This document shows, piece by piece, positions 1,723 to 9,739 of a stretch of DNA of 9,829 nt (positions are counted from its first letter, which is position 1; every line of letters starts with the position of its first letter). The position numbers were made by a program, and so were the translations under genes. Under the pieces are notes generated by a model. That model did no database searches. It was not told where the DNA came from and worked only from the letters and a program-made list of their open reading frames with translations. Source of the stretch: a virus. Taxonomy: Duplodnaviria > Heunggongvirae > Uroviricota > Caudoviricetes. The stretch is taken from the IMG/VR virus record IMGVR_UViG_2681813261_000006. One strand, given 5' to 3'.

Positions 1723-2157
1723 TCAATTCAAGTACTCCAATAGTTCCTGTACTATTCCGAGTAGTCTTTTTTTATCCTTTGCATTTGGTGATCTAATCTT
1801 ACTCATCATTGCCAGATTCAAACATTCCGGTTTAAGCATCTGATGAAGGATCAGTATTGCCTCTACAATCATTACCTCTCGCATAGTTGCGAAGCACCAT
1901 AGAATCGTTTTTGAGTACTGTTCACCATTTTCAATTTTGTTTTTAACGACATTGGAACTACTGAGGTACTCACGCCAGCCATTTTCCTTTGAAGTGGGCT
2001 TTAGCTTTCTCGCATCCTTAACCCGCTGATAGATTTGCTTAGCACCGACATAATTAGAACCATCCTCAAACTGAAAGATATAAACGAAACCAGCATATTC
2101 ACCGGATAACATTTCCTCCTCGCTCCAATCATCCGAGTATTTCCATTCACTCATCAT
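1723..2157 (-). CDS. GIY-YIG-type nuclease domain protein, 144 aa, catalytic domain only
   Basis: Tandem ATG ATG at 2157-2152 with AGGAA about 5 nt upstream. Protein has GFVYIF then 10 residues then YVGAK, an Arg about 9 residues later, and a C-terminal helix REVMIVEAILILHQMLKPECLN resembling the catalytic-Glu helix and conserved Asn of GIY-YIG nucleases (compare UvrC N-terminus, I-TevI). No DNA-binding domain is recognisable. Confidence 0.55.
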   Translation of the reverse strand: MMSEWKYSDDWSEEEMLSGEYAGFVYIFQFEDGSNYVGAKQIYQRVKDARKLKPTSKENGWREYLSSSNVVKNKIENGEQYSKTILWCFATMREVMIVEAILILHQMLKPECLNLAMMSKIRSPNAKDKKRLLGIVQELLEYLN

Positions 2158-2193: not shown

Positions 2194-2643
2194 ATGAGCG
2201 ATTTAAAAACACGATTAAAAGAATATGAAGGTACTAAAGAGTATCAGGCAAATTTGAAGTACTTCAGAAATGGGAAATTCTATCCATATGCTGATAGTTT
2301 AGGATGTAGTACTATTGGATATGGTCACTTAATTCAGGCGGGAGAAGATTTTAGTACTGGCATTACTGAAAGCGAAGCAGACAAGTTACTATCTCGCGAT
2401 TTAGCCAAAACAATTATGCAGGTACAGACATTAGGGTTAAATCTTCCCGATGACTGGAATGATTTTATTATTATCATGACCTTCCAGTTAGGTATTGGCG
2501 GGGTGAAGAAATTCCGTAAGATGTTAGCAGCCCTGAAAGCACATGATTACCTTGAAGCAATTAAACAGGCTAAGTGTTCTCTATGGTACAGGCAGACACC
2601 AAACCGTGTGAATTCCATGATTGCAGTACTTAAAAACAAATAA
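2194..2643 (+). CDS. Endolysin, T4-type lysozyme (glycoside hydrolase family 24)
   Basis: 149-aa ORF with ATG at 2194 and AGGT 9 nt upstream. Collinear with T4 lysozyme: EYEG, then YADSLGCSTIGYGH (Asp and Thr of the catalytic region, TIGxGH motif), ITESEADKLLSRDL, MTFQLGIGGVKKF, and C-terminal SLWYRQTPNRV (compare WYNQTPNR). Stop TAA 2641-2643 is followed by a terminator hairpin. Confidence 0.9.
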   Translation: MSDLKTRLKEYEGTKEYQANLKYFRNGKFYPYADSLGCSTIGYGHLIQAGEDFSTGITESEADKLLSRDLAKTIMQVQTLGLNLPDDWNDFIIIMTFQLGIGGVKKFRKMLAALKAHDYLEAIKQAKCSLWYRQTPNRVNSMIAVLKNK

Positions 2644-2645
2644 AG

Positions 2646-2683
2646 AAAAGGCATAGTACGAATGACATACTATGCCTTTTTTT
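2646..2683. terminator. Bidirectional rho-independent terminator between convergent genes
   Basis: Perfect 9-bp stem GGCATAGTA (2650-2658) pairing with TACTATGCC (2668-2676), 9-nt loop, T7 tract 2677-2683 on the plus strand and A-rich run 2644-2649 (T-rich on the minus strand). Sits between the lysozyme stop and the minus-strand 90-aa gene stop (2682-2684). Confidence 0.6.
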
Positions 2684-2954
2684 ATGGTCGTTGTTTCTGC
2701 TGAAGAATTGCAATAATCCTTTCAATCTTAACATCAAGTTCATGGATTTGTGTTTCCAGTTTACTTAGTGTATCTCTCATCTTATCCTGATCATCCTCAA
2801 TACGGGAAATACTACTTTCCAGTACAGCAATGGTAGTTTCAAGAGTAGCAACGCGAGTTAATAGATCATTCGTATCCTTTGTATTATCTCTAAAGATAGT
2901 ATAAAGGAATACGCATCCAGAAATAACAAGAGCTAAAATAGCACCGATATCCAT
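2682..2954 (-). CDS. Small membrane-anchored coiled-coil protein, 90 aa; candidate i-spanin-like or superinfection-exclusion-like protein, function unknown
   Basis: ATG at 2954-2952 with AAGGGA about 7 nt upstream. N-terminal hydrophobic segment IGAILALVISGCVFLYTIF (residues 3-21), then a charged heptad-patterned helix (LLTRVATLETTIAVLESSISRIEDDQDKMRDTLSKLETQIHELDVKIERIIAIL). This predicts a type II membrane topology. Confidence 0.6.
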   Translation of the reverse strand: MDIGAILALVISGCVFLYTIFRDNTKDTNDLLTRVATLETTIAVLESSISRIEDDQDKMRDTLSKLETQIHELDVKIERIIAILQQKQRP

Positions 2955-2965
2955 ACTGAAATCCC

Positions 2966-3013
2966 TTTGTTGTTATTGTTATTGTTATTGTTATTGTTAT
3001 TGTTATTGTATTA
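2966..3013. repeat. Hexanucleotide tandem repeat: six perfect GTTATT units (2972-3007) plus degenerate flanking units; (AATAAC)n on the minus strand
   Basis: Directly visible: tttgttg then six GTTATT units then gtatta. It fills most of the 56-bp intergenic space between the 218-aa gene stop (3011-3013) and the 90-aa gene RBS/ATG (2954). Confidence 0.9.
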
Positions 3014-3667
3014 ATACCCTGTAAATGTCGCCAATGCTATCTGGATACCATTATTCCCCATTGCCTGGCGGTAGGTTTTCTGGTTCTTTGAAACGTACTG
3101 TAGACTGAATGAAGTACTGGAATTACGCCTGATAACCAGACCAGAGTACCCAATTACTGTACCATCATCTGATATGTTCCCCGGACATTGTGACCAGCAG
3201 AACCAGGGATCAGCTACTGGAGACGTTACCGTAATGGCAGTACTGAGATCGGTAGCCGCAGGTGCTGTCAAAAATCCCCTGATACGTGGCATTGTTGCCG
3301 CTGATGCAGCAGACCAGATTAAAGTACCTTCTTCACTGAACACATCAAGAAAACCAGATGTGGGGGTAGCCGTGTGACTACTTGTCATGAACCTGCCCAT
3401 GCCAGGCTGGAACATATAGGCACCAGGGAAACACCATGCCCCGTCTTTCTGTATCTGGAACCAGTACTGTGTTGTGTTCCTGTTAGCTACTACTGATGGC
3501 ATAACGAAACCGAGCGATCCACCATTACCGAAGGCACAGGTAAAGCCTGTGTAGTATCCCGTATCAGTTAGATTTCCCATGGCCTTTACTGCACCCGTCA
3601 TTATCGACTTGTTAGTACTATCTATAGTCAGTGCACCCGCTGAATTATATACCTCGAAACCTGCCAT
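3011..3667 (-). CDS. Putative tail-associated protein, 218 aa; distal paralog of the 98-aa gene
   Basis: ATG at 3667-3665, 1 nt after the TAA of the preceding gene (TAAgATG). Rich in Gly/Ser/Thr/aromatics with 6 Cys. N-terminus MAGFEVYNSAGALTIDSTNKSIMTG parallels the neighbour's MAQGLQCWNAAGVLVVDLTDYNIRFMG. Position is directly downstream of the J-like gene. Confidence 0.6.
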   Translation of the reverse strand: MAGFEVYNSAGALTIDSTNKSIMTGAVKAMGNLTDTGYYTGFTCAFGNGGSLGFVMPSVVANRNTTQYWFQIQKDGAWCFPGAYMFQPGMGRFMTSSHTATPTSGFLDVFSEEGTLIWSAASAATMPRIRGFLTAPAATDLSTAITVTSPVADPWFCWSQCPGNISDDGTVIGYSGLVIRRNSSTSFSLQYVSKNQKTYRQAMGNNGIQIALATFTGY

Positions 3668-3668
3668 C

Positions 3669-3965
3669 TTACGCCGTCCACTTATATACGTTAAAAGTGT
3701 AGTTACCAGCTAACGGTGCATATGTTGGCAAATAAACCGCAGTAAATGACCCATTATTACAAAAGGCTGACCACTCATTAAAGGTATCACTGGCGGGGGC
3801 ATAGTGTACAAACCAGCCTGTAGTTTTCATATTTGGTACTGATACAGTATAGGTCTGTGCAGAAGTAGCCTTGACAGTATAAGTACCCATAAAACGTATG
3901 TTATAATCAGTCAGATCTACTACTAATACACCCGCTGCATTCCAACATTGTAATCCCTGTGCCAT
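3669..3965 (-). CDS. Putative tail-associated protein, 98 aa; proximal paralog
   Basis: ATG at 3965-3963 with AGGAG 8 nt upstream. Beta-rich composition. Shares the N-terminal MAxGxxxxNxAGxLxxDxT pattern with the following 218-aa gene. Confidence 0.55.
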   Translation of the reverse strand: MAQGLQCWNAAGVLVVDLTDYNIRFMGTYTVKATSAQTYTVSVPNMKTTGWFVHYAPASDTFNEWSAFCNNGSFTAVYLPTYAPLAGNYTFNVYKWTA

Positions 3966-4122
3966 AGCTCTTACTCCTGTAAATCCTTTTCTTCATTCCA
4001 ATTGTTTCTTTTCCGCTAATACTGAATGGGTTAGTACTGGTACTATTGAAAGTACGTTCATTAGATTTCATTTATGTATCCTTTTGAAATGAGGTTACAG
4101 TTAATAATCCCTGAATTATTTA

Positions 4123-7821
<3,699 letters not shown>

Positions 7822-9102: not shown

Positions 9103-9739
9103 ATGTTGTTATTTGCAGGCCAAATAGGCTATAACGCATATGATAAATGGAAAGAAAGTTCAGATGATGTTTTTAAGATGCGTGTAATCTTATTGAGCGA
9201 AATCAANNNNNNNNNNNNNNNNNNNNNNNNNNNNNNNNNNNNNNNNNNNNNNNNNNNNNNNNNNNNNNNNNNNNNNNNNNNNNNNAATAGGCTATAACGC
9301 ATATGATAAATGGAAAGAAAGTTCAGATGATGTTTTTAAGATGCGTGTAATCTTATTGAGCGAAATCAACAATAACCTTTTAGCTCTTGCTACTGGTGGC
9401 GATGAGTCTCAGGTGTTAGGCACATATGAAATATGTATTCCTCTTCCAACTGAAGATACAGAAGCTATTAAAAGAGTAGCAACTGCCGTTTCTTATTTGC
9501 ATGATGATGTATATTATTCCCAATTAGAAAAATTAGCATCACTCCCAAAAAAAGAAGTAGATGCCATCGTAAAGAGTTATTATTCATTATCGAGATTACG
9601 TACTCTTTCAACACAGCTTGCATACAATATTAAATACTCACCACCTAAAGTTAAATTATTGCGGGAAGAGTATTACAATCTCTATACCCTTTCATCTTCT
9701 CTTTCACAATATTTGTCTTATCACACGGAAAATCCCTAA
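9103..9739 (+). CDS. Hypothetical protein, oriented opposite to the tail operon; reading frame interrupted by the N-run at 9207-9285
   Basis: The ORF-track start at 9004 is a TTG one nucleotide from the divergent ATG of the M-like gene, so it is unlikely; the first in-frame ATG is 9103. The two track ORFs (9004..9297 and 9341..9739) join into one frame only if the 84-bp duplicates flanking the N-run are collapsed, giving ...DDVFKMRVILLSEINNNLLALATGG... Stop TAA 9737-9739. No family recognised; no clear Shine-Dalgarno for any candidate start. Confidence 0.4.
9123..9369. repeat. Exact 84-bp direct repeat (9123-9206 and 9286-9369) flanking the N-run; probable unmerged contig overlap
   Basis: Both copies read aataggctataacgcatatgataaatggaaagaaagttcagatgatgtttttaagatgcgtgtaatcttattgagcgaaatcaa; identity stops exactly at the N boundaries. 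Confidence 0.9.
9207..9285. other. Run of 79 N (scaffold gap, probably artefactual)
   Basis: Directly visible; flanked by identical 84-bp sequences. Confidence 0.99.

Follow-up and report, generated by a model that had tools for sequence, protein, structure and literature searches.

Within the window (the whole 9,829-nt stretch of Caudoviricetes DNA analysed here), a minus-strand module encodes, in order, a 1100-aa J-like tail-tip protein, a 98-aa protein, a 218-aa protein and, beyond a short tandem repeat tract, a 90-aa protein. The J-like protein matches Phage_Tail_Tip, Phage-tail_3, fn3 and phrog_31. The 218-aa protein matches phrog_4524 (E=1.6e-54), and PF28254 (DUF8377) is found among its precomputed matches. 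Phage HK639 and many siphoviruses of Escherichia and Klebsiella encode a homologous pair of 98-aa and 218-aa proteins (33-45% identity) 3' of their tail protein. A T4-type lysozyme gene is convergent with the 90-aa gene. The features in and around the tract are as follows.

3011-3667, minus strand: upstream 218-aa gene with its stop codon TAA at 3011-3013; conserved phage protein, 3' of the J-like tail-tip gene.

3005-3034, minus strand: sole promoter-like match near the tract, TTGGCG-18-TACAAT (9/12); judged unsupported.

2970-3009, minus strand: perfect hexanucleotide array, (ACAATA)6 at 3009-2974 and part of a degenerate ACAACA unit (2973-2968); the variable part of the locus.

2966-3007, minus strand: run of 14 A-R-N triplets, (AAU AAC)6 AAC AAA, directly 5' of the GGG of the Shine-Dalgarno (SD) sequence and in frame with the upstream ORF.

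2962-2967, minus strand: SD-like AAGGGA, read from the sequence, 7 nt before the ATG at 2952-2954.

2682-2954, minus strand: downstream 90-aa gene, which closes the minus-strand late/tail operon; its product has a transmembrane helix at the N-terminus and an acidic coiled coil.

2646-2680, minus strand: intrinsic terminator (15-bp stem and T run) from the terminator scan, directly after the 90-aa gene and before the convergent lysozyme gene.

The 90-aa protein consists of a 3-residue N-terminus, one transmembrane domain (TMD) and an acidic coiled coil of ~69 aa. It yields only sub-threshold, generic coiled-coil matches in Pfam and weak phrog_1009 and phrog_739 (Rz-like) matches. Precomputed data assign it a 'DUF2730 (weak)' match, but in our own hmmscan DUF2730 (PF10805) was absent at E<=0.01 and from the best 25 of the 43 families at E<=10. 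The DUF2730 protein gp25 of phage Mu, a 'releasin', has an N-terminal TMD and a cytoplasmic acidic domain and is encoded near the endolysin gene (PMC9239132). The 90-aa protein recalls gp25 in its TMD/acidic architecture and its adjoining lysozyme gene. The lysozyme in the window lacks a SAR-like N-terminus. A SegE-type GIY-YIG homing-endonuclease gene (1723-2157, minus strand; E=2e-16) adjoins the lysozyme gene, and the length of its product varies across S. sonnei assemblies (144, 143, 129 or 119 aa). The window also contains three runs of N (146-436, 291 nt; 525-806, 282 nt; 9207-9285, 79 nt). By synteny with the related locus L019 rather than by base-by-base mapping, the first two appear to fall within genes for a 264-aa protein and a 97-aa protein. 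The 264-aa protein of L019 has an HNH-like CxxC...H motif, and the 97-aa protein has hydrophobic C-terminal segments that give it a holin-like look.

In the terminator scan, the junction of the 218-aa gene with the 90-aa gene was free of terminators, and a strong one appeared after the 90-aa gene, so the tract is most simply read as an intercistronic part of a late mRNA, with the two flanking genes presumably co-transcribed. The terminator hairpin is also present in the relative L010. In the window it belongs to a long hairpin between the lysozyme and 90-aa genes (2609-2682 on the plus strand, 2646-2680 on the minus strand), which is a minus-strand terminator and probably serves both strands. 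The same hairpin (2609-2682) gives a sub-threshold Rfam match to the Salmonella sRNA STnc40 (27 bits; gathering score 45).

Tandem Repeats Finder detects a single tandem array in the window (2970-3009, period 6, 6.7 copies, 100% matches, score 80). On the plus strand, the array reads as six perfect GTTATT units at 2972-3007 with a degenerate unit on either side, and the 3' degenerate unit (gtatta) contains the complement of the stop codon at 3011-3013. At period 6, the longest self-match is 40 nt, compared with 8-15 nt for every other period. When the window was simulated 2000 times with a first-order Markov model, the period-6 match averaged 12.6, peaked at 18 and never reached 40. By both the repeat finder and the simulations, the tract is therefore a perfect head-to-tail array of short units beyond chance expectation, as in a variable-number tandem repeat (VNTR).

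In the gene sense, the region reads GGG TAT TAA-T-(ACAATA)6-ACAACA-AAGGGA(SD)-TTTCAGT-ATG. The mRNA reads (AAUAAC)n, since both flanking genes lie on the minus strand, and the tract occupies the 56-nt gap from the TAA stop of the 218-aa gene to the SD of the 90-aa gene. The initial annotation had described six perfect hexamers with degenerate flanks, placed between the 218-aa stop and the 90-aa RBS and encoding poly-Asn in the upstream frame. The repeat finder and direct reading bear out the hexamers and their flanks, the placement holds with both genes on the minus strand, and the upstream frame indeed reads Tyr-(Asn)n.

NCBI and UniRef label proteins identical to the 218-aa and 90-aa sequences as Shigella sonnei; they occur on 474 and 347 contigs, respectively. 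HE616528.1, the chromosome of S. sonnei 53G (PMC5447701), is among the carriers, with the locus at ~1.476 Mb. The 1.1-kb region around the tract gave no blastn DNA match in the phage genome collection and no megablast match in 5,426 complete E. coli genomes, so the comparison of copy number was taken from exact-protein look-ups. Scans of genome contigs and metagenome contigs added two and four distant relatives, respectively, usable as outgroups alone, and a 3'-flank pattern scan of viral contigs returned nothing beyond two IMG/VR contigs already found. Carriers of the locus or of its relatives belong to S. sonnei, Kosakonia, Enterobacter, Scandinavium and Pluralibacter.

Among ~25 independent assemblies, a small sample de-duplicated by look-up in which allele frequencies are biased, the tract occurs as 13 alleles, and the stop-to-ATG gap extends from 38 to 86 nt with each intermediate 6-nt step represented (38, 44, 50, 56, 62, 68, 74, 80 and 86 nt, with two haplotypes each at 62 and 68 nt). 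Alleles differ throughout by whole ACAATA or ACAAAA units, and gene coordinates from the look-ups give matching 6-nt steps. The related loci contain 1, 2 or 5-10 perfect units, within an overall range of 1 to ~11 units, distributed as follows.

One perfect ACAATA unit: L010, L024 (Kosakonia cowanii), L025 and L020/L027.

Two units: L015.

Five units: 53G and two others.

Six units: the window and four others.

Seven and eight units: further alleles.

Second haplotype: 6, 8, 9 or 10 perfect units preceded by one or two retained degenerate ACAAAA units.

At least nine alleles are found among 20 S. sonnei-type assemblies, and complete chromosomes also differ from each other (HE616528.1, 5 units; CP026802.1, 1 degenerate and 6 perfect units; CP179990.1, 1 degenerate and 10 perfect units). 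The surrounding sequence is almost invariant. Over ~3.3 kb, 11 S. sonnei-type loci exhibit two variable sites outside the tract, as against six length alleles, and the flanks of the alleles with 5-10 units (900 and 260 nt) contain no mismatches. Whole-unit copy differences are thus found between near-identical genomes, the behaviour that defines a VNTR. The tract had been predicted to be prone to slippage, and the comparison across related prophages is positive in this respect, with 13 alleles in virtually identical flanks. Slippage would be the mechanism of the length changes.

More distant relatives suggest how the array arose. In fourteen loci with 74-97% protein identity, those of Scandinavium lactucae and Pluralibacter gergoviae among them, the gap is A-rich, measures 34-46 nt and contains no hexamer array. 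The 1-unit alleles, including that of Kosakonia cowanii L024, contain the imperfect triple ACAAAA-ACAATA-ACAACA, from which, to judge by the aligned gaps, the array evidently grew. A 6-nt TATAAA segment just after the stop codon (~3010 in the window), present in L010, L015 and L024 and conserved elsewhere, has been lost from all S. sonnei-type alleles. The series from a 3-unit imperfect proto-repeat (Kosakonia and others) through 2 units in an intermediate locus to 5-10 perfect units in S. sonnei provides a clean example of microsatellite birth.

The element that carries the tract is degenerating. IS3-family transposase genes interrupt the J gene in L012 and L014 (S. sonnei 53G and CP179990.1, respectively) and the 90-aa gene in L017/L054 (JANXIY010000004.1), and J products of 831-1006 aa, compared with 1100 aa, are called in many assemblies. 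These insertions and truncations indicate that the prophage is decaying in many S. sonnei strains, which fits relaxed constraint. The G+C content of the window is 38%; that of the Shigella chromosome is ~51%, and those of the carrier genera are roughly 50-55%. In composition the element is foreign, and it would probably be subject to H-NS-type silencing.

The tract is probably a hypermutable hexanucleotide VNTR, close to neutral, in an untranslated gap of a decaying prophage, and thus a marker of the type used in multilocus VNTR analysis (MLVA) rather than a switch. Its birthplace would have been an A-rich, untranslated gap, the one that separates the final two genes in the late/tail operon of a siphovirus-type prophage. 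There, replication slippage in the imperfect proto-repeat ACAAAA-ACAATA-ACAACA may have generated a microsatellite. Expansion would have followed in the S. sonnei prophage lineage, with 6-bp gains and losses occurring much faster than nearby substitutions. The tract would be transcribed as unstructured intercistronic mRNA, and a gain of units would place the 218-aa stop farther from the 90-aa RBS while leaving promoter, reading frame and RBS untouched. Since length would change without effect on any of these three, the variation is most likely near-neutral. A prophage in decay across many strains of a young clonal pathogen could tolerate such variation, with tract length drifting.

An MLVA26 panel for S. 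sonnei reportedly goes back to Liang et al. (2007). The tract resembles enterobacterial MLVA markers in having many unit-step alleles among otherwise near-identical genomes. A close parallel is STTR6, a VNTR on prophage Gifsy-1 of Salmonella Typhimurium (PMC3901673) that is intergenic (PMC5183578); both are perfect short-unit arrays in non-coding prophage DNA with no demonstrated function. The S. sonnei loci with 6-bp units include SS9, SS10, SS11 and SS13. Among the loci of this unit size, SS10 ranges from 2 to 10 units and SS11 from 2 to 9, whereas SS15 and SS17 have low diversity with 2-4 units (PMC3310650). The range of the tract, ~2-11 units in this comparison, resembles those of SS9, SS10 and SS11 and is unlike the narrow one of SS15 and SS17. 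The published forward primers of SS1, SS3, SS6, SS9, SS10, SS11 and SS13 (PMC3420240) have no match in the window on either strand with up to three mismatches, so identity of the tract with any of these loci was rejected. The supplement of an S. flexneri MLVA study lists no such repeat unit.

The main value of the tract is practical: a widespread prophage of S. sonnei carries in it a highly polymorphic VNTR with 6-bp units, distinct from the seven commonly used MLVA loci and a possible marker for typing or microevolution. It is also a break point for some short-read assemblies. At least ~20 S. sonnei contigs start or stop exactly at the tract edges (proteins P0003, P0005-P0008, P0017, P0020 and P0023). 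Partial 218-aa proteins stop at ..ATFTG, ..IALAT or ..NGIQ, and 'partial' 90-aa proteins begin with QRDFSM, RDFSM or SM. These breaks could reflect k-mer limits or length heterogeneity within a culture.

The main alternative to near-neutral drift is graded control of translation, in which the transcribed (AAUAAC)n would be a site for the Hfq distal face or a standby site for S1/30S, and changes in unit number would tune translation of the 90-aa protein and possibly lysis. We regard this as unlikely, although several features of the tract point towards it. Its 14 consecutive A-R-N triplets extend to the SD and form the longest such run in the window; the next longest on that strand has four. 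The Hfq distal face binds A-R-N repeats; amiE6ARN, AAAAAUAACAACAAGAGG, is an experimentally defined site of this kind (PMC5815094), and the ancestral allele, AAUAACAACAAAGAGG, nearly matches it. Folding predictions on constructs with 0-16 units place the tract at ~90% unpaired once at least five units are present. The tract therefore has, by its sequence and predicted fold, the single-stranded run of at least 4-6 A-R-N triplets near an RBS that characterizes Hfq distal-face sites. It would be an ideal motif of this kind beside the RBS, and its copy number could matter quantitatively.

The comparison with amiE of P. aeruginosa has limits. The two share a near-identical sequence, in the ancestral allele, and a single-stranded A-R-N run that abuts the SD. 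The tract differs in having 14 triplets instead of six, in a number that varies, and its Hfq site is a candidate one in an enterobacterial host; the amiE system requires Crc, which enterobacteria lack. The Rfam scan returned just sub-threshold, low-complexity matches (CrcZ and STnc40). The best match of the tract was to CrcZ (RF01675; 2928-3009, minus strand), an A-rich Hfq-binding sRNA, and this might be taken in favour of an Hfq site. At 25.2 bits compared with a gathering score of 95, however, the match is driven by low complexity and reflects compositional resemblance only, and membership of the CrcZ family was rejected.

The relatives also speak on both sides. Runs of 5-8 A-R-N triplets occur at the equivalent place in 7 of the 11 relatives examined, and this retention of an A-rich (AAN)-type stretch 5' of the SD is a hint of some function in the gap. 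The other four have no run of at least five triplets there, and any AT-rich gap leading from a TAA to an A-rich SD is rich in AAN. A second A-R-N run (5-7 triplets, ~3951-3977) was observed near the expected end of the 90-aa homologue in the more distant relatives L003, L004, L005, L006, L008, L009, L029 and L030, and it is the longest run in most of these loci.

Haemophilus influenzae offers a precedent for expression scaled by a repeat within the transcript: the copy number of (ATCTTTC)n at hmw1A/hmw2A is inversely related to expression without frameshift switching (PMC12721329). As at hmw1A, the tandem repeat in the window lies 5' of a start codon and consists of units whose length is no multiple of a promoter spacer; given its place in the presumed late mRNA, it would also be transcribed. 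The hmw repeats, located in a primary 5'-UTR, base-pair with a G-rich arm, and RNase III cleaves the resulting long hairpin. The tract, in contrast, lies between two cistrons of an operon, contains no G, has no predicted partner sequence or hairpin and is ~90% unpaired in the predicted folds. The unpaired probability of the SD is predicted to be 0.71-0.80 with 1-16 units and 0.87 without units, and that of the AUG is 0.35-0.36 at any copy number. The repeat thus forms no regulatory RNA structure in these predictions, and a structural switch was rejected because the folds of the 0-16-unit alleles revealed no change at the SD or AUG. Control by graded translation is further disfavoured by the IS disruption of the prophage in several strains and by the unpredictable direction of any effect.

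A bolder form of the same idea, in which slippage in (AAUAAC)n, equivalent to (A-R-N)2n, makes a heritable, stepwise platform for Hfq binding or ribosome standby right at the RBS of a membrane protein that the prophage encodes, is more doubtful still. If true, S. sonnei clones would differ in the translational set-point of a membrane protein that, given its gp25-like architecture, may be related to lysis, and a microsatellite would act via an RNA chaperone site instead of a promoter or reading frame. Tuning of 90-aa translation through the A-R-N/Hfq or standby route is the only case in which the copy number of the VNTR would be of mechanistic interest.

Far less probable is the proposal of the initial annotation that the tract mediates promoter-spacer or promoter-distance phase variation, with unit changes respacing promoter elements and switching the 90-aa gene on or off. 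Known promoter-spacer repeats include the TA repeats between the -35 and -10 elements of H. influenzae hifA/hifB and the homopolymer tracts at Neisseria opc/porA. The tract shares with these systems a slippage-prone, simple non-coding repeat that precedes the gene of a membrane-associated protein, and its copy number is highly variable. In those systems, units of 1-2 bp lie between the hexamers, whereas here the unit is 6 bp, the array spans 6-66 bp and no hexamers bracket it.

The promoter scan of the window found no -35/-10 pair that brackets the tract. The single weak σ70-like match, TTGGCG-18-TACAAT, overlaps the 5' edge of the tract, but both of its hexamers are located upstream of, or at, this edge. 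Since they do not flank the array, the repeat would be a leader rather than a spacer even if the match were real. The -10 element TACAAT becomes TACAAA in the second common haplotype, so the match is lost there. In promoter scans of three relatives, L010 and L006 lacked a counterpart, and L004 had just a different weak site. The 2500-4200 region is not enriched in promoter-like matches (four found, compared with 5.9 expected from shuffles), and between the tract and the ATG nothing is -10-like apart from the RBS. Moreover, 6-bp steps over a 48-bp range are incompatible with tuning around an optimal spacing of 16-18 bp. Copy changes had been expected to alter spacing without touching the reading frame; the frame is indeed intact and the stop-to-RBS distance moves, but no promoter is affected. 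Readings of the tract as iterons, a protein-binding array or PhoP-box-like TGTTAT sites were dropped, as the periodicity is 6 bp and not 11 bp and no evidence supported them.

That the length differences are short-read assembly or sequencing errors is scarcely credible: some S. sonnei short-read assemblies do end exactly at the tract, but alleles recur across independent assemblies, complete chromosomes included, strain 53G has five units in both of its independent assemblies (L012 and L053), and typical reads exceed the tracts (30-70 nt) in length. Equally improbable is stop read-through adding a variable poly-Asn tail to the 218-aa protein, which the initial annotation had listed as its less likely option. 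The tract is in frame as (Asn)n and unit changes preserve this frame, but the TAA stop precedes a T, the context in which E. coli terminates most efficiently, and the extension would cross the RBS and start codon of the 90-aa gene. A second in-frame TAA two codons on in 9 of the 14 more distant relatives means that no C-terminal extension is conserved. The relatives keep an ATAAATA motif after the stop, and it is this motif that forms the second TAA (TAA-NNN-TAA) in those nine.
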